A stretch of 64,000 bases of DNA from an uncultured Gemmatimonadales bacterium (GCA_963821525.1 CAWGED010000005.1:192001-256000), one strand, 5' to 3'; positions 29,771 through 44,100 are shown, counted from the first letter of the stretch. Made by a program: numbers and translations. Notes: generated by a model not told the origin, from the sequence alone.

Positions 29771-31166
29771 TCAGATGTGCAGCACCCGGCCCATCGAATC
29801 GAGCGCTGCCTCGGCGATCGCCTCGGAGAGTGTCGGGTGGGCATGGATCGCCAGATCCACTTCCTCGACGGTGTATTCGTTCTCCCGGGCCACGGCGAGT
29901 TCATGGATCATCTCTGATGCGTGAGACGCCACGATATGGGCTCCGAGGATCTCGCCGTACTTCTTATCGCGAATGATTTTTACGAAGCCTTCTGTCTCGT
30001 TCGACGCGCGGGCTCTTCCGTTGGCGCTGAAGGGGAACCGGCCTACCTGGTAGTCAAGCTTCTTTTCCTTGCACTGATCCTCGGTCAGCCCGATGCTGGC
30101 GACTTCCGGATGGCAATAGGTTACGCTGGGCACATTGTCGTAGCGGATCGGATGGGGCTTGTGGCCCGCGAGCAGCTCGGCCACGAACACCCCCTCACGG
30201 CTCCCCTTGTGGGCCAGCATGGGAGGCCCGGCCACGTCGCCGATGCAATAGACCCCGGGCGCGGTCGTCTCGAGAGTCGCAAGGTTGACCTTGACGAACC
30301 CCCGCTGGTCCAACTGCACTCCCGCTTCCTTGAATCCCATGTTTTCCGTGTTCACCGCGCGACCCGCGGCCATGAGCACCTTCTCCGCCTGCACCGTTTC
30401 GGTCTTGCCGCCCACTTCAACCGTCAGCGTCACCTTGTCCTTGCTCGACCTGGGCCTTGGTGACCTTGGCACCCGCGAACACATCCATCTTCCGCTTCCG
30501 GAAGCTTTTGCTGATCACATCCGATGATTCGGCGTCCTCCAGCGGAAGGATCCGAGGCAGCGCCTCGATGAGCGTGACCTTCGACCCGAAGGCGTTGAAG
30601 ATGTCGGCAAACTCGCAACCGACCGCTCCTGCTCCGATCACCGCGACCGAGGCCGGCAGTTTCTCCAGGAAGAGCGCCTCATCGGAGCTGATGACCGTCG
30701 TCTTGTTGATCTCGAGCCCGATCTGCGGAATGCCCTTCACTCGCGAGCCGGTCGCGATGATGACCGCCTTCTTGGCTTCGTGGGTCTCCCCGCCGACCTT
30801 CACTTTTTTCCCCGGAAGCAGGCTCCCCTCACCCTTCAACACCGTCACCTTGTGCTTCTTCATCAGGAACTCGACGCCCTTCGAGTTCTGCTCGGCGACT
30901 CGCCGCGACCGCTTCATCGCGACCCCGTAATCGGTCTTCACGCTGCCGACTTCGATGCCGAGGTCCTTCGCGTCGTGGGCGATGAGATTGGCCGTGTATG
31001 CGCTGTGAAGCAGCGCCTTGGTCGGGATACACCCGATATTGACGCACACCCCACCGAGTTTGTCTTTCTCCACGACGGCGGTGGCGAGCCCAAGCTGTGC
31101 GCACCGGATGGCGCAGACGTAGCCTGCAGGGCCACCGCCGAGGATGATCACATCAAACTGGGCCAC
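29771..31166 (-). CDS. lpdA: Dihydrolipoyl dehydrogenase (frameshift ~30450)
   Basis: GGGPAGY, GGVCVNIGCIPTKALL, IGAGAVGCE, HAHPTLSE. Confidence 0.96.
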
Positions 31167-31188
31167 ACTACCTCCAGAGGTCGTTGTC

Positions 31189-32509
<1,321 letters not shown>

Positions 32510-32556
32510 GCAGGTCCGAATTACCGTAACCGAGATGCTCAGTCTTACGGCCTGGC

Positions 32557-33540
32557 TTATGGCCCTGTATATGTCACCTTCCGCACCGCCGCCACCACCT
32601 TATCCGCATCCACTTTGGCCGCCTTCTCCAGCCGCTTGTTGTACGGCATGGGAACATCGGCGCCGGTGACTCGCAGTACCGGGGCATCCAACTCGTCGAA
32701 TACCTCGCGCTGGATCTCGTCCACTACCTGCGCCCCGACGCCGGCGAAGGGCCACCCTTCCTCGACTACGACGCAGCGGTGGGTCTTTCCGACCGACTCG
32801 AAGATGGCCGCCGTATCCAGCGGTCTGATGGTGCGAAGGTCGATGACTTCGGCCGAGATTCCGTCCGCTTCGAGCTGCTGCGCTGCCTTGAGTGCGATGG
32901 CGACCGTCTTCGCGTGGCAGACGAGCGTCACGTGCTCGCCGGGACGTTTGATGTCCGCGACCCCGATCGGAAGCGTGTACTCTCCTTCTGGCACTTCACC
33001 CTTCACGTTGTAGAGCATCTCGCCTTCCATGAACACGATCGGGTCGTCATCCCGGATCGCGCTCTTGAGCAGGCCCTTTGCGTCGGCCGGTGTCGCCGGC
33101 ATCACGACCTTCAAGCCGGGGATATTGGCGTACATGCTCTCGAACGACTGCGAGTGTTGCGAGGCGAGCTGCAGTGCGGCGCCTGACGGGCCGCGGAAGA
33201 CGATCGGAACTCCGACCTGCCCGCCGGACATGTAGCGCATCTTGGCCGCGGAATTCACCAGCTGGTCGATTGCGAGCAACGCGAAGTTCCAGGTCATGAA
33301 CTCGATGATCGGTCGCAGGCCAACCATCGCCGCCCCGACCCCGACTCCGGCGAATCCCAGCTCGGTGATCGGCGTATCCACGACCCGGTTGGGGCCGAAC
33401 TCCTCCAGCAGGCCGCGGCTCACCTTGTAAGCGCCCTGGTAGACCCCGACCTCCTCGCCCATGAGGAAGACATCGGGATCCCGTTGCATCTCCTCGCGGA
33501 GAGCCTGGTTGAGGGCGTCCCTGTATGTCAGTGTCGGCAT
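32557..33540 (-). CDS. pdhB: Pyruvate dehydrogenase E1 beta
   Basis: [29 protein letters not shown]. Confidence 0.96.
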
Positions 33541-33556
33541 GGTCTCGATTTCGCAG

Positions 33557-33631
33557 GTAGTGGGTTGTAGGTGGTAGGGAGTAGGTGCGGCATCCCCACT
33601 CCCTACTCCCCACTCCCTACTCCCTACTCCC
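33557..33631. repeat. Inverted GGGAGTA/TACTCCC heptamer arrays
   Basis: gtaggtggtagggagtagg...ccccactccctactccccactccctactccctactccc. Confidence 0.8.
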
Positions 33632-34640
33632 TGTTTTAACCGGCGCATACACATCCGTATACAACTCCTCCGGCTCCGGATCCTCCGCCGCATCCGCGAA
33701 GTCATAGGCATCCTGTACCTCTGCCACGACTTCCTTGTCCATCGCGGCGATCTGCTCGTCGGTGATGATGCCGTCGGCCTTGAGCTTCTCCTGCCAGAGC
33801 AGGATCGGATCCCGCTTGCGGTGCGCCTCCACCTCTTCCTTGGTCCGGTAGTGCCCGTGGATCGGGTCGGACATCGAGTGCCCGACAAATCGGTAGGTCC
33901 TGATCTCGAGAAGCGTCGGTGCTGCAGGTCGGCGGGCCCGGACCACTGCGCGGTCCATTGCGGCCATCACTTCCAGCAGATCCTGCCCGTCCACCACCTC
34001 TCGTGACATGTCGTACGAAGCGGCGCGCTCGGAGATGTTCCAGGTGGCGGTCGCCCGGTCGAGCGCGGTGCCCATCCCGTAGCCGGTTGTTCTCGCAGAT
34101 GAAGATGCAGGGCAGCTTCCAGATCCCCGCCATGTTCAGCGCCTCATGGAAGGCGCCGTTGTTGATCGCCGCCTCTCCGAAGAAACAGACCGCGACCTGA
34201 TCTTTCTCGCGGTACTTGATGGCGAAGCCGATTCCCGCGGCGAGCGGAATATGCCCGCCGACGATTCCGTGTCCTCCAAGGAAGCCGAGAGAGGCGTCGA
34301 ACAGGTGCATCGACCCGCCCTTGCCCTTCGAACACCCCGCCGCCTTGCCGAATAACTCGGCCATCACCGCGCGGGAGGATATCCCCCGCACCAGGGCCTG
34401 ACCGTGGTCGCGATAGGTGGTGACGATGTAGTCGTCGGGTCGCAGCTGAGACAGGCAGCCGACTCCCACCGCTTCCTGGCCGATGTAGAGGTGACAGAAC
34501 CCGCCGATCTTCCCCAGGCTGTACGCCTCGCCGGCCTTCTCCTCGAAGCGCCTGATGAGCAGCATCTGGCGGAGATACAGCCGGTACTTCTCGGCGAGCT
34601 TGGTGTCGGGCTTGCGCGAGGCCTTGGTGGAAGCGGTCAT
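33617..34640 (-). CDS. pdhA: Pyruvate dehydrogenase E1 alpha (frameshift ~34080)
   Basis: [35 protein letters not shown]. Confidence 0.95.
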
Positions 34641-35599
34641 GGTGTCAGAGCGGCCGAGCTAGCCGCCGAGCCGTCCTGTCGCCGAGCCGCCGCATCTGCC
34701 TGCTCCCAGGCGTGGTAGGACGACCGAGTCAGCGGGCTCGACTGAACGTGGGTGAATCCCAGATCCATTCCGATGTCTCGCAGCTCGTCGAATTCGGCCG
34801 GCGTGTAGTAACGGGCGATCGGCAGGTGAGCGGCGGAAGGCCGGAGATACTGGCCCAGCGTGAGAATATTCACGTCCTTGCGTCGCAGGTCCCGCATGCA
34901 GGTCACGATCTCGTCCCACTCCTCACCCATGCCGAGGATTACTCCCGACTTGGTCAGTCCTTCCGGGGCCATGCGGCGAGCCGCACCGAGAAGGTTCAGG
35001 GCGCGGTCGTAGCGTCCGCCCGGACGGGCCAGGCGGTACAGCCGCTCGCAGGTTTCCAGGTTGTGATTGAAGATGTCAGGCTTGGCCTCGAGCACGATGG
35101 CCAGCGCCGTCTCCGAACCCTTGAAATCCGGCGTCAGCACCTCGACCGTGGTTTCCGGCAAGCGCTGGTGGATTTCCGAGATGCACGCCGCAAATGCCTC
35201 GGCGCCACCGTTGGGGAGGTCGTCCCGGTCTACCGATGTGATGACCACGTGGCGCAGGCCCATCTCCGCCACGGCCTCAGCCAGTCGCACCGGCTCGAGC
35301 GGGTCGTAGGGTGCCGGAGTACCGTGCGAAACCGCGCAGTACGCGCAGTTCCTGGTGCACACGTCGCCCAGGATCATGAAGGTGGCGGCTTTGTGCTCCC
35401 AGCACTCGCCGATGTTGGGACAGCGAGCCTCTTCGCAGACCGTGTGAAGCCCGAGGTCTCGCATCAATTGCTGGATTTGCAGGTAGGTTGGTCCGCCCGG
35501 AGCCTTCACCTTGAGCCAAGCGGGCTTCCGGGGCGGTGGATTGGCAGGGACTGAGGTCAGCTCGTTGCTGCGAGTGAGCTGGACCAGCGGGAGAACCAT
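34637..35599 (-). CDS. lipA: Lipoyl synthase
   Basis: [34 protein letters not shown]. Confidence 0.97.
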
Positions 35600-35719: not shown

Positions 35720-36169
35720 CTACATCCCGGCAGGGGCCTCCTTACAGCGGTCCATAAGAGTGGCAGCATCCGTCCTTACCGTCGACGTGGCGTGAGCCTC
35801 GACCGTGGTAATACCGCGTTCGGTCTGGTACTCGTCAAACGTGCTCGCCTTGACAGTGAGATCGGAGCCAAGCGTGGTACCGGTCGCAGCCTGGAGCTCG
35901 ATTTGATCGTAATGGCGGCGGAATTTCACGTTCGACTCCCGGTAGGTGCTGTCGTTCTTCTGCCCCATGACCCGACGCGCATCGTCATCGTGGACAATCT
36001 GCTTGTACCCCATCGATTTGAGCTGTTGCTGGGCACAGGTGTACGCGTCGTCTCTCGCCAGACTGGAAGACGCGGCGCCGGTGCTGTACAGGGTTCCGCC
36101 GCCGCATGCGGCGAGAACAAGAGCGATACTCAGACTGGAGGTGATCCCGACTCCGACTCGCAGGGACAT
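35720..36169 (-). CDS. Hypothetical lipoprotein
   Basis: Lipobox LAAC; two further Cys. Confidence 0.6.
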   Translation of the reverse strand: MSLRVGVGITSSLSIALVLAACGGGTLYSTGAASSSLARDDAYTCAQQQLKSMGYKQIVHDDDARRVMGQKNDSTYRESNVKFRRHYDQIELQAATGTTLGSDLTVKASTFDEYQTERGITTVEAHATSTVRTDAATLMDRCKEAPAGM

Positions 36170-36257
36170 TTTCACAACGCTCCGACGTGGAATTGAAGAG
36201 GATGGTGTGGCGGAATAGTAATCGGTTGCGCCTCAGGACAGAGAGGGCAGGAAAACC

Positions 36258-36320: not shown

Positions 36321-37500
36321 CTAGTAGAACAGCATGAAACCAAACGCGCCGGTGAAGGCCTTGTTTTGCTCTACGTTGTTCTCGGTGTCGTCGGATATCA
36401 TGTAGTTGCCTTCAACGACGATCTTCAGAGACTTGGTAGCCTGGTGGTAAAGGCCGCCGGAGATCAGGCTGTTGCTGGTCTTGAAGTCGGGCTCGCCGTC
36501 GGTGCTCTGGAGCATGCTGGTGCCGTAGCTGGCCGCCAGGGTGTTCTTCTCGCCCAAGCCGATCGTCGCCTGAGCAAAGCCGCCGTAGGAGTCGCGCAGC
36601 TCGCCATCGGCTCCGACGCCCAATCCGCCCAGGGCCGGGCCAACGCCAGAGAAATAAGGGTGGTGCCGATGCCCTTGCCCCAGTAGCCGGTTCCGGTGAG
36701 CGAGAACTTGCCGTTCTCCGTCTTGAAGGTGAGGCCGCCGCCTACGCCCGTGGCAGTCTTGGACTGATCAGCCACCGGGTCCTTGGCGTTCTGGGCCGTT
36801 CCGTTGATGAACAGGTTGATGTTCTTGCCCTTCCACGTGAACTCGCCTTCCAGCCGCGGGAGATCGGTCTGGGTGTAGTTGCCGTCGAGCGCGGAAGGAT
36901 CCATCAGGCCGATGCTCAACTGGGTGGGTCTGCCACTCTTCGTCGAGTAGGTGATCTGGCCCACGAAGTTGGCATAGGGATACCCATAGCCGATACGGCC
37001 CAGCGTGGTGCCGCTCGGGGCGATGCCACCGCCACCGACGCCGAACAGGGTCTGGTCCGCCAGGATGTTCCCGCGGGCGAACAGGCCCAGTTCCTTACCG
37101 GCCAGGATCTGGCCCCAGCCCCCGCCGACGGTCAGGAACACCTGACGCATATCGATCTGGGCGCCGAAGCAGTCGTGGATGCCGCCACCGCACTGCACTT
37201 CGGGCGCGAAGCCGAAGTGGACGCCGAGGTCAGTATTGCCCTCTTTGCCCTTGGCTTCAAACGTCGCGAACGCAGGCAGCAGGCCGGTGCCGTAGTAGAA
37301 GCCCTGGCCTCCCACGCCGGTCAGGGTTCCCGGGGAATCGGTTGTGCCGCCATCTTCTGGCTCTGGTACTGCGCGAAGATGTTGACGTTCCCCGCGAACG
37401 AGAACGTCCAGCCGTTACTCATCTGCATGGTCAGCTGCGCGTTGGCGGTACTCGCCGCGGCTAGCAGCAGACCGCCCAACAACAGTGCGGAACGCTTCAT
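36321..37500 (-). CDS. Porin (at least two frameshifts)
   Basis: Signal MKRSALLLGG..ANA-Q; GLLPAFATF, IDMRQVFLTVGGGWG, LGRIGYGY; aromatic C-terminus FGFMLFY. Confidence 0.75.
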
Positions 37501-37597
37501 CGGTGCCTTCTCCTGACTAGAAGAGGAATTGGAACTACCCGCTTCATCAACAAGTGCCTGCACCAACTGACGTCTCAAACAAAGTCAGCGATAGATC

Positions 37598-37960
37598 TCA
37601 CTCCTTCTGTTGCATCTGCCGTTTGAGATCGTTGTTCACCTCCCAGAAAGCGTACCAGAGCGCGTTTGGACGATGGTTCTCCCACCAGAAATAATCGTCG
37701 AGCCGGGCCCCATAAACATTGGCCGCATAGCGAAATACCAGCCCATTCACCCGCAGGCTGTCCATTACCCGCCACAACCCGGCCGAATCCCGAACGCCAG
37801 AGGCAAGCGCCTGACTCAGCGCGCTGCCTGCGAGAAAGCCCGAAAGGAAGGTGTTGCGTGCGTCCGGACTGAGTTTCGCCCAATCCTGGCCGCTGATCGA
37901 AAACCAGTTAGGGTCCCGTATCTCACGAATCGGAAAAAAGATACAAAGACCCGCCAGCAA
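37598..37960 (-). CDS. Hypothetical exported protein (start uncertain)
   Basis: Trp-rich 120-aa ORF co-oriented between the cupredoxin and porin genes. Confidence 0.55.
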   Translation of the reverse strand: MLAGLCIFFPIREIRDPNWFSISGQDWAKLSPDARNTFLSGFLAGSALSQALASGVRDSAGLWRVMDSLRVNGLVFRYAANVYGARLDDYFWWENHRPNALWYAFWEVNNDLKRQMQQKE

Positions 37961-38054
37961 CGCAACCCGGGGCCATTGAATTCCTAGGCATCTTAGTCGG
38001 ATATGAGCGTCCTGTTGGGTTCAATCCACAACCTCGGAATTCACCGGCTCCCCC

Positions 38055-38609
38055 TTAGTTGCTGGTTGAAGCCTCCACGGAGGGGGCCGAAACCTGGGAA
38101 CTCACCACGAAACGGATCCACATTCCTGAATGCCCGTGCCCCGGCACTCCGCAAATTATCCGGTACTCCGCAGCGGGTTCGGCCTTGAAGCGCATGGTGT
38201 CCTTCTGCCCCTGGGCGAGTCCCTGCGTGGCTTCCCGAGTGTAAGCTCTAGGGATCGCCGCTTCTTCCGCCATGTTCGGTATCGGCCCCTCGGCGGGAAT
38301 CATCACGGCACTGTGCGGGGTGCCATCATCATTCACGAAGGGCATCACGACGGTGGATCCGGCCGGTACTGTGAGAGTGAGTTCTCCGTTGGTAAAGCCG
38401 TTGAAGTTGAACGGACTCTTGGCTCCCCCGGTGAGCCCCGCAATCAACTTGAAGGAGACCGTCTTGGATGCTGAATCATAGCTGAGCCAGGTTGAATCAA
38501 TTGGAAAATGACCGGCGTGTTGCGCTTCGGTGGTCTGCGTCGCCGCCGTGCGGGCAGCGACCAGAGCCGCAAGAACTAGCAGAACCTGCCGGGACTCTCG
38601 CCAAATCAT
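38055..38609 (-). CDS. Sulfocyanin-like blue copper protein
   Basis: Signal peptide; FNFNG..NGEL..VPAG, PHS, CGVPGHGHSGMW (C-x4-H-x4-M). Confidence 0.88.
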   Translation of the reverse strand: MIWRESRQVLLVLAALVAARTAATQTTEAQHAGHFPIDSTWLSYDSASKTVSFKLIAGLTGGAKSPFNFNGFTNGELTLTVPAGSTVVMPFVNDDGTPHSAVMIPAEGPIPNMAEEAAIPRAYTREATQGLAQGQKDTMRFKAEPAAEYRIICGVPGHGHSGMWIRFVVSSQVSAPSVEASTSN

Positions 38610-38643
38610 GCCGACTCCTGAAAAAGAAGTAACCACTCAAAGT

Positions 38644-38676
38644 GAAGCGGGCCAGCCGGCATGGCTGGCCCGCTTC
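38644..38676. terminator. Hairpin between the dehydrogenase and cupredoxin genes
   Basis: gaagcgggccagcc-ggcat-ggctggcccgcttc, 14-bp stem. Confidence 0.6.
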
Positions 38677-38727
38677 TCAAGATAGAACCGGCAAGGGCCT
38701 ATGAGGAAGCCTCGCCGATCGCCCCGG

Positions 38728-40396
38728 TCATGCGGGGGGCGTATACGCCTTCGGCAGGCCGAAGATGTACACGCTGTTGCCCAGCGGGTAGCTCAGCTGG
38801 AAGTTGCCACCGCAGGCCACCGCGATGAACTGCTCGTTCTTGAACTGTGTAGGTCATCGGAGCGGAGTTGCATCCGGCGCCCGCCTGGAACTGCCAGAGC
38901 AGCTTCCCGGTGCGGGAATCGTAGGCGTTGAAATTCCCGTTGCCTTCTCCGGTGAAGACGAGCCCGCCGGCCGTCGCCAGGGCCCCGCCCATCATCGGCT
39001 GCGGCACCTTCACCTGCCACGCCTTCTTGCCGGTGCCGAGGTTGAGCGCCGTGAACGAGCCCGTACTGCTCCTCACCCGGCGATCGCGACGAAGGCCGAA
39101 CCGAGCCACAGTTTTCCCTTGTCCCACGGCGGCGTTGTGGGTGATGTAGTTCATCGGCTGATGGAGGCCTGCTACGAAGGCGTAGTTGAGCTTGGGATCC
39201 ACCGCGATCGGCGACCACTCTGCACCGCCGTTGGCGCCGGGAAGCATCCGGGTACCCGAAGCGGTGGGCTGGGCGAACATGTTTTCCTGCGGGGTGAAGT
39301 TCTCAGTCTTGCGCACCAGCGTGCCGGTTGCGGCGTCCAGCACGTAGACCCAGGCGGTCTTGCCGGCATGGACCACGACCTTCTTGCCGCCCAGCGTGGT
39401 GACGACCGGCGGGGACACGGCGTCGAGGTCCCACACGTCGTGCGGAACCGTCTGGTAGTACCACTTGGTCTTGCCGGTTGTCGCCTCGATGGCGACGACG
39501 CAGTCGGTGTACAGGTTATCGCCCGGGCGCACGCTGCCGTCGAGGTCGGGCGAGGGGTTACCAACCGCCACGTAGATGAGACCGAGGCTCTGGTCGTAGG
39601 CCGGAGTCATCCAGACGCCGCCGCCGCCGCGGGTCCACGCGTCCGCGTACTTGGCGCTGTCCGACTTCTCGGCGCCGGTGTTGCGGTTCAGGTTGTTGCC
39701 TTCGGGGGTCGCGTCAACCCAGTTGCCGTACCAGCCATTGGGAGCCGCCTCATCGAAGGTGGGATCGCCCTTGGGAGCGGGAATCGAATACCAGCGCCAG
39801 ACCTGCTTGCCGGTCACCGCATCGTAGGCGGTCACGTGGCCCCGGATGCCGTATTCACCGCCCGAGACACCGACGATCACGTTGTTGCCGATGACAAGCG
39901 GCGCGTGGGTGATGCTGTAGCCGAAGGCCGGATCGGCCACCTCGTTGTCCCAGACAACGTCACCGGTCATCCGGTCGAAGGCGATGAGGTGGGCATCGAG
40001 GGTGCCCATGTAGACGTGCGGGCCATGCACGCCCACGCCGCGGTTGTTGGGGCCGCAGCAGAAGATCGTAGTGCCGAGCTTGTGCTCGTAACGCCAGACC
40101 TGTTTCCCGGTGTCGAGGTTGTACGCGATCAGGGTGTTGTACGGGGTGGTCACGTACATCATGTTCTCAACCACGATCGGCGTATTCTCGAACGAGCCGA
40201 GCTTGCTGATCCCGGTCTGGAAGACCACCCGAGGCACCAGCGACTTCACGTTTGTGGTATTGATCGCCGTAAGCGTGGAGTAGCGCTGGTTCCAGTCATT
40301 CCCGCCATACGTCATCCACTTGGTCTGGGCGGAGAGGTTGCTGGCAGCCGCTGCGCAAACGAGCATGGCCAGACCCCAACGAGAAGCACTGCGCAT
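38728..40396 (-). CDS. PQQ-dependent dehydrogenase, methanol/ethanol family (C-terminal frameshifts)
   Basis: Signal peptide; FENTP, CCGPNNRG, GGEYGIRG, GGGVW, GNPSP..RPGDNLY, HDVWDLD, TAGGLVF; corrected end QFIAVACGGNFQLSYPLGNSVYIFGLPKAYTPPA*. Confidence 0.92.
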
Positions 40397-40584
40397 GGGA
40401 GAAGGTCTCCTGGGTATAGGGAACTGAGGAAACGACCATCGTGCCGCCACGACACAGCCAGACGCGGGCGGAAGCGCCATTGATACGCAGGCTTTAAGAG
40501 GCTCGGGAAGATGCCACCGCCCACGGCCGTGGGACGGCGGCGCTTTTGGAAATAGGGCTTGCGACCGGAACCGTCAAGTGGCCT

Positions 40585-40725
40585 TTAGTGGAATAGGAGC
40601 ACTGCCTTCTGGAAGGTCATGAAGACCCCCCATCCCAGCGGAATCCCCACCGCGATCCAGGCCAGTGCGACCAGCCCCCAGTTCCCCGGTTCGGGCTGGC
40701 TGCCGGTCGGCTCGTTGGGTTGCAT
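40585..40725 (-). CDS. OFA-associated MFS transporter small subunit (46 aa; not in ORF track)
   Basis: MQPNEPTGSQPEPGNWGLVALAWIAVGIPLGWGVFMTFQKAVLLFH*, AGGAGG upstream. Confidence 0.75.
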   Translation of the reverse strand: MQPNEPTGSQPEPGNWGLVALAWIAVGIPLGWGVFMTFQKAVLLFH

Positions 40726-40767
40726 GTGCGTCCCTCCTAGAGGTACCGCTTCTCCGGAACCGTCTCG

Positions 40768-42145
40768 TCAGTGGCCCCGCAGGCGCTCCCGGGCCAGCTC
40801 CTCGTCGGACATGAAGTAGCGATCGGGAAGCGGCCGGACCAGCAGGTTGCAGATGAAACCGATCACCAGGAGCCCAGCCAGGACGTACATAGTCGTGTTA
40901 TACGCCTCCGCCACTGGTACCCCGCGGTCCACCTGATGTTGCCGGATCTCGTTCACCAGCAGCGGGCCCACGACACCGGCGGTCGACCAGGCCGTCAGCA
41001 ATCTTCCGTGAATGGCGCCCACAAACTGGGTCCCGAAGATGTCCGACAAATAGGCGGGGATGGTGGCGAAGCCGCCGCCATACATCGTGATGATCACGCA
41101 GAAGATCGCCACGAAGAGCGCGACGCTGCCGATCCGGCCCGCATGCGGGACCAGTGAGTAGAGCACGATCCCAAGGGCGAAGAAAATGAAGTAGGTCGGC
41201 TTGCGGCCGAGCTTATCAGAGAGCGACGCCCACCCGATCCGCCCCCCGATGTTGAACAGACTCAGGAGTCCCACGAAGCCCGCCGCGGCGGAGGCCGACA
41301 CTTTGTCCTTGAAGACCTCCTGGATCATGGGCGATGCCTGTTCCAGGACGCCGATACCGGCGCTCACGTTGGTGCACAGGACCAGCCAGAGCAGTATGAA
41401 GGGCACCGTCTTCCAGGCCACGTCCACGTGAACATGGCGACGAGTGACCATGCTGACATTAGTGGTAGCGGGCGTCCACCCCGCGGGTTTCCAGTCATTG
41501 GGCGGAATCCGATAACTGAACGCGCCGCACATCATCGTCACGAAGTCAGATGAGACCCATCGTGACGAAGGTCTCCCAAACACCGACCGAGGTCGGCGTG
41601 GCGTAGTGCTTCATCAGGATAACGGCCAGCGGCGCCCCGATCATGGCACCGCCTCCGAATCCCATGATCGCCATGCCGGTTGCCATGCCGCGGCGGTCCG
41701 GGAACCACTTGATGAGGGTGGAAACCGGTGAGATGTATCCCAGTCCGAGTCCGCACCCACCAATCACCCCGTTGCCGAGATACAGGAGCCAGAGCTGGTG
41801 GGTGCGAACGCCGATTGCGGAGATCAGGTACCCTCCACCCCAGCAGAAGGCGGCCGCGACACCCGCCCTGCGCGGGCCCACTCGCTCGAGCCAGCGTCCG
41901 AACACCGCCGCTGACAGACCCAGGAACACGATGAAAATCGTGAACACGAGGGCGATTTGCGTCTGCGTCCAGTCGCCTGGGCCGGACTCGGTGATGCCGA
42001 GGGCACGAGTGAGCGGAAGTTTGAAGACGCTGTAGGCGTAGGCTTGGCCGATCGAGAGATGGATGGCGAGCGCCGCCGGTGGGACCAGCCACCGATTGAA
42101 CCCTGGCTTCGCGACAATACGTTCCTTGTCGAGCAGGCCGGACAT
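40768..42145 (-). CDS. OFA (oxalate/formate antiporter) family MFS transporter (frameshift ~41548)
   Basis: FNRWLVPPAALAIHLSIGQAYA, KWFPDRRGMATG, YGGGFATIPAYL, IHGRLLTAWS. Confidence 0.92.
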
Positions 42146-42214
42146 CAGCGACTCCTGATGTGGGACGGGTACATCCGGGAGGAACCGGCATACATTACCG
42201 CGAGCCCGAGAAAA

Positions 42215-42761
42215 ATGCCAACCGACCCGAACCTTTCGATTCCCTCGCTCACGCGAGCCGGACTCACCAGCCTCATGCTCGTCCTGGCGGCGATGGGCAC
42301 TTTGTCCGCCCAGCAGACCGGCGCGCTTCCCCAGTGGATGACCGCAGATTCGGCGAGTCGAACGGTCTCTCTGGAGCTCAAGGTTGCATGGAGCTGCGGG
42401 TTCGCCAGCGACTATCTCGGGCTACCGCCAGGGGGGCGTGGAGGTCGTGGTTCCGGTCGGCTGGACGATTCGCTGGCGATGGATCAATGGGGACAGCACC
42501 GCGGCGCATAGCCTGGTGGTGATGGTGGAGCGGGAGAAACTGCCGGCTGAAGGCGGCAGCCCGGTGTTCGACAACGCGATGAGCCGGAATGTCGTCCGTG
42601 GTCTAGGCCCCGGGAAAACCGACGAGACCACATTCACTGCGGATCAGGCGGGGTGGTACTGGCTGCTCTGCGGCGTCCCGGGCCACGCGCTGGGCGGAGA
42701 ATGGATCGGTCTGAAGGTGGACGCTGAGGCCAAGGCTCCCGCTGCGACGTTCCGGCAGTGA
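42215..42761 (+). CDS. Second sulfocyanin-like cupredoxin (frameshift ~42388)
   Basis: Signal peptide; VVVPVGW, AHSLVV, YWLLCGVPGHALGGEW. Confidence 0.8.
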
Positions 42762-42835: not shown

Positions 42836-44002
42836 TTACCTCTCTTGGAGTAACCCCTCCACTTCCGCCCGCATCTCCTTCACCAGCTTCGCGTGCTGCT
42901 CCGGCAGGGCGGGGCCATAGAAACCGGCGTGAATCCGACGGACTCGACCAGTGCGGTCGAGAAAGATCGTGGTGGGGAACGCCGTAAAGTTGGTGAGCTG
43001 CGGCAGGGTCGCCGCGGCGGCCTCGGTGTCATTGGTTCCCGCCCGAAGCAGGATGAACGGGATGTGGTAGGCATCCCGGTACAGTCGCACCTGGTGATTG
43101 TCGGTGGCGCTGTCGCCGCTTACCTCATAGGCGAGTCCGACGATCTCCAGCCCGCGGGCGTGGTAGTCCTTATAGAGCTGCACCAGGGCGGGGGCCGCGT
43201 CGTGGCAGGTGGGGCACCAGGTCCCGAACACGTCGATCACGACCACCTTGTCCTTGAGTCGCGGGTCGGCCTCGGTGATCTGCCGGCCTTCGAGATCGGG
43301 GAAGCTGAAGCGGAACGGTGTCGTGTCCGCCGTCGTGATCTCGCTGGGCGACTTGAGATGAGGAACTCCGGTGCTGCGGACGGCGATGAATCGGGTCTGG
43401 GTTCGGAGGCCGGCGTGGAAGATCCCGCGGAGGGTGTCTGCCTTAAGCTGGCCGGTCAGCATGTAGACGTAGGAGCCGTCGAAGTGGGAGATCGAAAAAC
43501 TGTCCGCCTGCGCATGTCCCCAGAAAAGACCGTAGTCCCCCGTGTTGGAGATGATGGTTCCCTCGAGGCCCGCCTGGCCATTGCGTAGCTCGATGACGCG
43601 AGGGCTCGCGTCGAAATCGGTCAGGAACTGCGCGTCCCAGCGACCGGTCAGCCCCGCGGGACCTTTCTCGACCGGCCAACGGCCGCGTCCCGCGCGAAAA
43701 GGAATGGTGCGGGGTCCGCGCCGTCCTACGTTGTGATACTCCCCGACCAGGGAATCCCCTCTGGCCACCGCGGCAATGGTGGCTGCGTAGGCCGAGATGT
43801 CGAACACCACGCTGTCGCCGGCGACGCGTACCGCGCTCAGCGCCTGGCACTGCGTCCCATTGCAGAGCTTACCCTGCCACGTTCCTCCCTTTTGTTCTAC
43901 CGTGAGCGCGAAGCGAAGAGGGCCTCCGGCAATGTCGAGCACGGCCCGCCACGGGCCAGCGGGGGTGGGAGCGACAGTGAGGGCTAGGAGAAGCGTAAAC
44001 AA
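42836..44002 (-). CDS. TlpA/redoxin family protein with N-terminal beta domains
   Basis: GTWCPTCHD, AFPTTIFLDRTG; TTG start inferred. Confidence 0.85.
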   Translation of the reverse strand: MFTLLLALTVAPTPAGPWRAVLDIAGGPLRFALTVEQKGGTWQGKLCNGTQCQALSAVRVAGDSVVFDISAYAATIAAVARGDSLVGEYHNVGRRGPRTIPFRAGRGRWPVEKGPAGLTGRWDAQFLTDFDASPRVIELRNGQAGLEGTIISNTGDYGLFWGHAQADSFSISHFDGSYVYMLTGQLKADTLRGIFHAGLRTQTRFIAVRSTGVPHLKSPSEITTADTTPFRFSFPDLEGRQITEADPRLKDKVVVIDVFGTWCPTCHDAAPALVQLYKDYHARGLEIVGLAYEVSGDSATDNHQVRLYRDAYHIPFILLRAGTNDTEAAAATLPQLTNFTAFPTTIFLDRTGRVRRIHAGFYGPALPEQHAKLVKEMRAEVEGLLQER

Positions 44003-44100
44003 TTGACGATTGACGATTGATGATTGATGATTGAACTGCTGTGGACTCGAGATGATTACCAATCTGCAATCGGCAATCGGCAATTACCAATTGGCAATCA
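44001..44100. repeat. GATTGAY and CAATCGG-type heptamer arrays in inverted arrangement
   Basis: attgacgattgacgattgatgattgatgattga...caatctgcaatcggcaatcggcaattaccaattggcaatc. Confidence 0.8.

Follow-up and report, generated by a model that had tools for sequence, protein, structure and literature searches.

To our knowledge, the characterised soluble pyrroloquinoline quinone (PQQ) alcohol dehydrogenases pass their electrons first to haem c. Here we describe a gene cluster in which a PQQ dehydrogenase (hereafter DH) stands beside two cupredoxins, CupA and CupB, in a stretch of 64,000 nucleotides from an uncultured Gemmatimonadales bacterium (GCA_963821525.1 CAWGED010000005.1:192001-256000; hereafter the window, from whose first letter positions are counted). 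The window belongs to an 81% complete genome, and its homologues carry the name Gemmatimonadales.

The closest described enzymes, the lanthanide-dependent PedH/ExaF and the Ca-dependent PedE/ExaA (both type I), share with DH a single haem-less propeller, a vicinal disulfide and Glu/Asn/Asp residues, and the D-x-D motif of DH is that of PedH; they are, however, distant and in a separate clade, differ at pocket positions, and have cytochrome c550 rather than a cupredoxin as the partner gene. The co-encoded cytochrome c acceptor that marks type I enzymes is lacking at the DH locus. XoxF also shares the D-x-D lanthanide site and the disulfide, but DH lies outside the XoxF clade and its cluster has neither xoxJ nor xoxG. 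Passages in PMC10875860 and PMC5103831 describe XoxF as common in Gemmatimonadota, the former adding that almost all Gemmatimonadetes XoxF3 systems have XoxG. Type II quinohaemoprotein alcohol dehydrogenases (QH-ADHs; 1kv9, 1kb0) have the Glu of an E-x-T-P motif and a PQQ-side Lys in common with DH, and a passage in PMC8348568 has their electrons end on a blue copper protein, azurin, as proposed here. DH differs in lacking their haem c domain, so that its PQQ would reduce copper directly.

Aromatic amine dehydrogenase (AADH) directly reduces azurin, and both it and methylamine dehydrogenase (MADH) use tryptophan tryptophylquinone and an unrelated catalytic subunit, whereas the cofactor here is PQQ with a predicted lanthanide. 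MADH and amicyanin, whose role is noted in PMC12723479, form a pair in which a quinoprotein directly reduces a type-1 copper protein; our module would resemble it in wiring and PedH in chemistry. Sulfocyanin (SoxE) and rusticyanin have the PF06525 domain and Cys-x4-His-x4-Met loop of CupA, but the cupredoxins described here are tied to DH, not to SoxM oxidase or iron oxidation, and CupB has an axial Glu. For heterotrophic marine Thaumarchaeota, whose cells lack cytochrome c, a passage in PMC7300363 hypothesises that PQQ dehydrogenases feed blue copper proteins; that hypothesis came from the cytochrome absence, with no specific partner, and the enzymes have no Cys-Cys motif. In the literature that we found, from which subscription papers were mostly absent, no publication linked PQQ dehydrogenases to sulfocyanin-like partners, and there was neither a report of a PQQ-cupredoxin fusion nor a description of a natural cupredoxin with an axial Glu. 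The DH clade may already bear a type number (for example, 'PQQ-ADH type 8') in the supplement of bioRxiv 10.64898/2026.07.10.737718, and parts of PMC9038741 and PMC6784897 provide further background.

A conserved dehydrogenase-cupredoxin module

DH and its cupredoxins form a conserved, real module. We consider it likely that DH reduces the copper of CupA directly, with CupA replacing the cytochrome c of sister enzymes, a reading supported by co-occurrence in 63 of 63 genomes, a slot swap, joint relocation and domain fusion. A preliminary description of the window, made from the sequence alone, had suggested a PQQ enzyme with a blue-copper acceptor; that proposal gains support from these comparisons, and every gene listed there was found in its place and on its strand. 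The genes at the centre of the module are as follows:

40396-38728, minus strand: DH, PQQ dehydrogenase (Pfam PF01011, E 7.5e-82; four assembly indels)
38609-38055, minus strand: CupA, sulfocyanin/rusticyanin-like cupredoxin (PF06525, 96.9 bits, cut-off 21)
about 37960-37598, minus strand: small, all-helical, family-less protein (start uncertain)
about 42215-42761, plus strand: CupB, divergent paralogue of CupA (PF06525; indel at 42384; start approximate)

Single-base indels break the genes for DH, a major facilitator superfamily (MFS) carrier, CupB and a porin-like protein in the window (4, 1, 1 and 2 indels, respectively). They were missing from two relatives (95% and 91% DNA identity) wherever those cover the site, and the short-read contigs of four studies are likewise free of them; one porin indel, near 36653, shows in RNA-library contigs. 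We therefore take the indels to be assembly errors and reject a pseudogene reading: the genes are intact in nature. Many window genes are broken in this way (by eye, also in the lpdA, pdhA and pdhC regions), as is typical of an unpolished long-read assembly, and apparent pseudogenes in this genome should be distrusted. Protein work was done on intact copies (L004, L005 and P0001).

The DH clade, defined at ≥59% identity with fragments included, was found in 63 of 301 sampled genomes of the phylum, among which kin are not independent (G155, unpublished, was used only as a negative). All 63 have a CupA-clade gene; of the 238 genomes without DH, 228 have none and 10 have CupA only. Within family f2, the identical nine of 70 genomes hold both. 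The two genes are within 600 bp of each other in 33 of the 63 genomes. CupB was found in 41 genomes, 40 of them with DH, and remains beside DH where the MFS gene is gone; searches of the 63 DH genomes failed to find it in 23, among them every one from f2. As controls, the MFS carrier accompanies DH in 49 of the 63 genomes and occurs in 12 others that have no DH, while the orphan cytochrome family nearest to the sisters' partner does not track DH, being found in 184 of 301 genomes overall yet not in 15 of the 63.

At the level of loci, the neighbourhood survey that had been suggested as a check found a cupredoxin gene wherever the flanks on the two sides were long enough (56 of 56 related loci), which argues that the arrangement is not chance. 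No cytochrome gene adjoins DH in 80 close loci, whose called genes hold CxxCH motifs only in the active site of a TlpA-like thioredoxin and in one unrelated gene 7 kb off (L032). Across these loci, conservation often extends over the whole block from the TlpA-like gene to lipA, and synteny by itself is therefore poor proof of a link. DH-cupredoxin adjacency also recurs in unrelated contexts, in both orders (L097, L098, L100, L102 and L143-L148).

The slot beside the enzyme is filled differently in sister clades. Six Gemmatimonadales DHs (43-51% identity) are directly followed by a c-type cytochrome gene, as are the plasmid-borne DHs (47-50% identity) in all three cases opened. Cupredoxin-linked DHs make up one side of a branch (SH-aLRT support 98, quick tree), and in each main sub-branch of this clade CupA is found adjacent to DH. 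Trees were quick IQ-TREE and FastTree reconstructions from 55, 43 and 36 hand-picked rows.

When the chromosomal block breaks, DH and the cupredoxins move together. Four genomes (G064, G200, G238 and G117) retain the TlpA-MFS-porin-lipA block without DH; their DH is encoded on a different contig, together with at least one of the cupredoxins. The helical family-less protein is likewise at the relocated site in G200 and G238.

In three proteins (P0245, P0246 and P0315) a DH and a C-terminal SoxE domain form a single chain. These came from a DH-based search in which 54 long proteins among the 150 best representatives were scanned, yielding the three DH-SoxE chains, seven with a plastocyanin-type domain and many with cytochrome c. 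The fused SoxE domains match the CupA profile (E 4e-44, 3.5e-42 and 2.9e-30), each better than the CupB profile, and occupy the place that haem c has in type II enzymes. Metagenome loci held single-open-reading-frame fusions in 8 of 80 cases (4 clusters at 90% identity), with all 7 readable motifs of the Met type, and an Atlas cluster of 204 proteins combines PQQ and SoxE domains (83%), Chloroflexota being the commonest phylum among the 66 with a record. A FastTree tree requires at least two origins of SoxE fusions. A search for longer proteins with CupA as the query returned 3 matches and no PQQ fusion, a blank that marks the sensitivity limit of that search since the DH-based one did find fusions. 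Cytochrome c and cupredoxin are interchangeable partners across this enzyme group, both as genes of their own and as fused domains. Separately, seven more distant PQQ dehydrogenases (P0251, P0294, P0311, P0313, P0319, P0331 and P0392) are fused to plastocyanin-type domains, and their Atlas clusters number 62-74 members; coupling to copper seems to have more than one origin.

Predicted metal sites of the enzyme and the cupredoxins

Intact DH is a PQQ beta-propeller that ends at 554 aa with no CxxCH and no fused haem domain of the type II kind. Its N-terminus, judged by eye, resembles a Sec signal, and we predict a periplasmic location. The best structural-sequence matches were PedH/ExaF and PedE/ExaA (6zcv, 6zcw and 1flg; E about 1e-77), and the TIGR03075 model was narrowly missed (446 bits against a cut-off of 480). 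When aligned to PedH, ExaA, type II QH-ADH and XoxF structures, DH has the Cys-Cys, the Glu/Asn pair of metal ligands and the catalytic Asp in place; the vicinal Cys-Cys and the Glu/Asn/Asp residues are invariant in 40 of 40 sequences, and the Cys-Cys in 120 of 120 homologues. A second Asp, two residues past the catalytic one (D-x-D), is present in 120 of 120 homologues and at 80 of 80 loci. This residue is a lanthanide marker according to a passage in bioRxiv 10.64898/2026.07.10.737718, and we predict that DH is lanthanide-dependent.

In a quick IQ-TREE tree, DH separated with support of 100, on long branches, from six xoxF rows (31-34% identity), which were labelled by their xoxJ/xoxG-type neighbourhood; an identity of DH as XoxF was rejected because it falls outside that clade. 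PedH F412/L413/N417 correspond to invariant Ala/Asn/Glu in DH, and the PQQ-side Arg is replaced by Lys. C-terminal Trp residues close the pocket in methanol dehydrogenase and PedH; those of the pocket region are missing from DH in an alignment extended manually. From these differences we infer that the DH pocket may be more open and polar. Net charges of DH, CupA and CupB, all slightly negative, are uninformative. Outside the clade, two family f4 loci (L095 and L096) encode DHs 50-53% identical, with no adjacent partner, in genomes without a SoxE match, and the L095 protein is without the second Asp.

The type-1 ligands of CupA, a His followed by Cys-x4-His-x4-Met, are invariant in 40 of 40 aligned sequences. 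Its profile search matches rusticyanin, and it scores below the sulfocyanin equivalog TIGR03094 (91 bits vs 168.4). CupB has the loop Cys-x4-His-x4-Glu. The Glu takes the place of the axial Met in 120 of 120 homologues, and an alignment of CupB with CupA over 142 columns (probability 99.9) pairs it with the Met of CupA. Its model is a cupredoxin fold (pLDDT 87) for which the best Foldseek match was rusticyanin, with VIA Z of 11-13 to cupredoxin domains. The ligand set indicates that CupB is not a canonical type-1 site; of the two sulfocyanin-like proteins, the type-1 assignment suits CupA (His/Cys/His/Met) and not CupB (axial Glu). Neither this Glu nor the D-x-D site of DH had been part of the preliminary description; both were detected here.

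An axial Glu ligand is expected to lower the potential of a cupredoxin. It may also distort the copper site or favour another metal. A reference title within PMC13401956 names Fe(II)-M121E azurin, and the passages of PMC8915257 and PMC13401956 give no potential for a single Met-to-Glu variant. The conserved Glu cupredoxin is a natural counterpart of the engineered azurin variant and of interest to bioinorganic chemistry. A third natural variant, seen at one locus (L160:3510-4199), is a CupA relative with an axial Gln, encoded right after a D-x-D DH. On a plasmid of Deinococcus sp. NW-56 (L124), a sulfocyanin-like gene stands right behind nirK, which supports a general electron-carrier role for the family.

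The proposed route of electrons and its rivals

No cytochrome c gene and no pqq gene were found within the cluster, as had first been described. In the surroundings, the TlpA-like gene next door supplies the sole coding CxxCH, a CPTCH that was rejected as a haem site because it lies in a thioredoxin domain. The genome as a whole is less bare, as a search of the kind proposed with the original description made plain. It encodes pqqABCDE (pqqC and pqqE scored above their cut-offs; pqqA, B and D were recognised among the open reading frames), so PQQ auxotrophy was rejected, and a separate xoxF-xoxJ-xoxG cluster beside tetrahydromethanopterin (H4MPT) genes. Together with orphan cytochromes, the latter confines the absence of a cytochrome partner to the cluster. 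Candidate electron sinks include two oxidases, one of the caa3 type and one whose subunit II is short, as well as a Sec-type NosZ and a NirK-like gene; the xoxF-J-G/H4MPT, pqqABCDE, NosZ, NirK-like and oxidase genes are at G000 C8:192-216 kb, C19:954-958 kb, C5:453-462 kb, C5:863 kb and C8:124-127 kb.

In the mechanism that we propose, DH would bind PQQ, supplied by pqqABCDE, and a lanthanide, and would oxidise a small alcohol or aldehyde in the periplasm. Electrons would leave through the vicinal disulfide to the copper of CupA. CupA would in turn feed a CuA-containing oxidase, or NosZ or the NirK-like enzyme when oxygen is lacking. CupB, with its anionic axial Glu, would likely be a lower-potential relay or an alternative acceptor gained in one lineage, and the helical protein may assist assembly. 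Elsewhere, one DH has right behind it an operon for a haem-copper oxidase with a subunit II that is free of a cytochrome domain (L091:8470-11187), and further oxidase genes are near DH at L090:10210-12560 (cbb3-like) and L100:1372-2715; these oxidases are possible electron sinks.

Several observations weigh against direct transfer from DH to CupA. Ten genomes keep a CupA-clade gene without DH, so CupA has other uses; CupA is unlinked to DH in 30 of 63 genomes and directly downstream in just 31 of 67 close loci. Eight other DH homologues (40-52% identity) that we opened have neither partner adjacent. The fused DHs are merely 40-47% identical and sit on other branches, as distant relatives outside the clade. 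At five f2 loci (L085-L089) DH is beside a xoxF cluster with CupA elsewhere, four of them with a CxxCH cytochrome in view, and XoxG could be shared there. Three XoxG-like genes are encoded in the window's genome, as are three orphan cytochromes similar to the partner of the sister enzymes. The counts overstate independence, since most of the loci are akin and lie within a larger block of shared synteny (TlpA-like gene in 49 of 60, lipA in 36 of 43), and the 59% cut-off was chosen post hoc, at an identity gap seen when the list was inspected.

The strongest rival, which we nonetheless consider improbable, is that the acceptor of DH is a cytochrome c from another locus, either XoxG-like or orphan, and that the cupredoxins act one step later, taking electrons from this cytochrome to an oxidase, in the manner of azurin with type II enzymes. 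The XoxG-like and orphan genes and the five f2 loci just described would suit such a route, as would type II PQQ alcohol dehydrogenases, whose electrons go via the haem domain to azurin as the natural acceptor in the passage of PMC8348568 cited above. Against this, the fusions join DH and cupredoxin with no intervening haem domain, the cupredoxin sits in the cytochrome's slot of sister clades, and the orphan cytochrome family, the one family surveyed for this across the genomes, does not track DH.

That CupB is instead the direct acceptor in the window's lineage, with CupA a general shuttle downstream, has still less in its favour and seems to us quite improbable. Linkage speaks for it, since CupB is present at 61 of 63 close loci with sufficient upstream flank (CupA is directly downstream in the 31 of 67), DH is present in 40 of 41 CupB genomes, and CupB stays by DH when the MFS gene is gone; the lower potential expected of a Glu ligand is in keeping with this role. 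Yet 23 of the 63 DH genomes, all of f2 among them, gave no CupB; the fused domains are of the Met type and nearer to CupA; and the Glu may distort the site or favour another metal (compare the Fe(II)-M121E azurin of the title in PMC13401956).

Least probable of all, and to our minds highly implausible, is that the cupredoxins have nothing to do with DH, serve for instance as iron oxidases or general carriers, and are near it by shared block ancestry: the TlpA/lipA-containing block is indeed conserved in most close loci, a passage in PMC11316326 terms a marine Gemmatimonadota sulfocyanin a putative iron oxidase, and other SoxE-like clades occur without DH in f6 (20 of 23) and f7 (18 of 48), but the f6 and f7 proteins are a separate clade (35-37% identity), DH and cupredoxins relocate jointly when the block breaks, their adjacency recurs in unrelated contexts and both orders, and fusions are on at least two other branches.

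Returning to direct transfer from DH to CupA, we lean, by a little, towards a wider generalisation: a widespread and undescribed 'quino-cuproprotein' class in which a lanthanide-PQQ site would reduce type-1 copper with no haem, and axial Met, Glu or Gln would tune the acceptor. Its forms would be the gene pair in soil Gemmatimonadales and the fusions in other phyla.

Carrier, porin, neighbouring genes and substrate

The remaining genes of the cluster and its surroundings are as follows:

42145-40768, minus strand: MFS carrier of the SfMCT/OFA group (one assembly indel at 41547)
40725-40585, minus strand: MFS transporter small subunit, 46 aa (NF047966, 43.3 bits, cut-off 24)
37500-36321, minus strand: porin-like outer-membrane protein (two assembly indels)
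42836-44083, minus strand: TlpA-like thioredoxin with CPTCH, abutting CupB
35720-36175, minus strand: lipoprotein-like conserved gene with no Pfam family, between the porin-like gene and lipA
29771-35599, minus strand: lipA and pyruvate dehydrogenase operon, just downstream of the cluster

A promoter and terminator scan gave match counts no higher than in shuffled sequence; one strong hairpin follows the porin-like gene (36285-36257). RNA-library contigs, from relatives, span parts of DH, the porin-like gene and the small-subunit region, and part of CupA in one run, with little or no cover of the MFS gene and CupB; these contigs carry no expression-level information, and gaps in their cover are not to be read as a result.

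The carrier had been assigned to the OFA/OxlT type, an assignment that we revise. The intact MFS protein of a relative (L005) passes the SfMCT L-lactate model NF049980 (338 bits vs 320) and misses both oxalate/formate models, TIGR00890 (171/374.85) and TIGR04259 (123.6/335); its best structure is SfMCT (6g9x, E 8e-31), against 2e-19 for OxlT. The small subunit follows the MFS gene wherever it was called. In family f1 the MFS gene accompanies DH in 44 of 54 genomes and is listed without DH in only 2, and a metabolic link between carrier and DH is plausible, although the two are separable.

The porin-like gene gave a sub-cut-off Porin_4 match on a fragment only, and its intact copy gave none. 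It was found at 46 of 52 loci and follows DH in f2 and other lineages, but stays behind without DH at L241, L242, L245 and L246, the four relocations. The pathway originally envisaged, with substrate entering by the porin and acid leaving by the carrier, is weakened: both genes keep their chromosomal site in the four genomes where DH and the cupredoxins are elsewhere, and the carrier, with its lactate/monocarboxylate-type score, is absent from some DH genomes and present in 12 without DH.

The helical protein has no Pfam or NCBIfam match. Its model is all-helical (pLDDT 92), and the best fold, HdeA (Z 7.6, rmsd 3.2, 76 aligned), is a weak match below the reliable level; that the protein aids assembly is a guess. 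Of the 52 loci where the flank was long enough, 40 have it, and it travels with DH into the relocated clusters L250, L251 and L253. The core of the module is therefore DH, CupA and the helical protein, plus CupB in one lineage.

Other neighbours keep to the chromosome. The TlpA-like gene, present in 49 of 60 close loci, stays behind when DH relocates; its product could serve copper-site or disulfide maturation. The lipoprotein-like gene (35720-36175) likewise keeps with the chromosomal block and not with DH. In 36 of 43 close loci the lipA and pyruvate dehydrogenase operon comes next downstream, with the same orientation, a proximity that would fit a flux from lactate to pyruvate yet is probably positional. 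In several lineages a TonB-dependent receptor gene precedes DH (L092:8443-10575, L116:2987-5098 and L099:8948-9919); in the two scanned, the best model was PqqU, below cut-off, and the receptor may import PQQ or a lanthanide. At L116 (genus g3) it is directly before CupA with no DH between, which suggests loss of DH.

As to the substrate, our tentative first choice is an alcohol or aldehyde that is polar and has several carbons, with the MFS carrier taking up the resulting acid. The lactate-type score of the carrier, the pocket of DH and the existence of a separate XoxF system all favour it. A one-carbon (C1) substrate, favoured by the formate dehydrogenase-N type operons that follow DH in two f2 genomes (L097:1720-6901 and L099:3-4866), is rather unlikely, and we hold other substrates to be in the same doubtful range.

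If the proposed route is true, transfer from lanthanide-PQQ to copper would be a new wiring in quinoprotein biochemistry, and iron-sparing alcohol respiration would be possible in an abundant soil phylum. The single-chain fusions make the route directly testable and are candidates for direct-electron-transfer electrodes. For annotation, some Gemmatimonadota 'sulfocyanin' genes have been read as iron oxidases and D-x-D PQQ enzymes often as methanol dehydrogenases; neither label fits the DH/CupA clade well.

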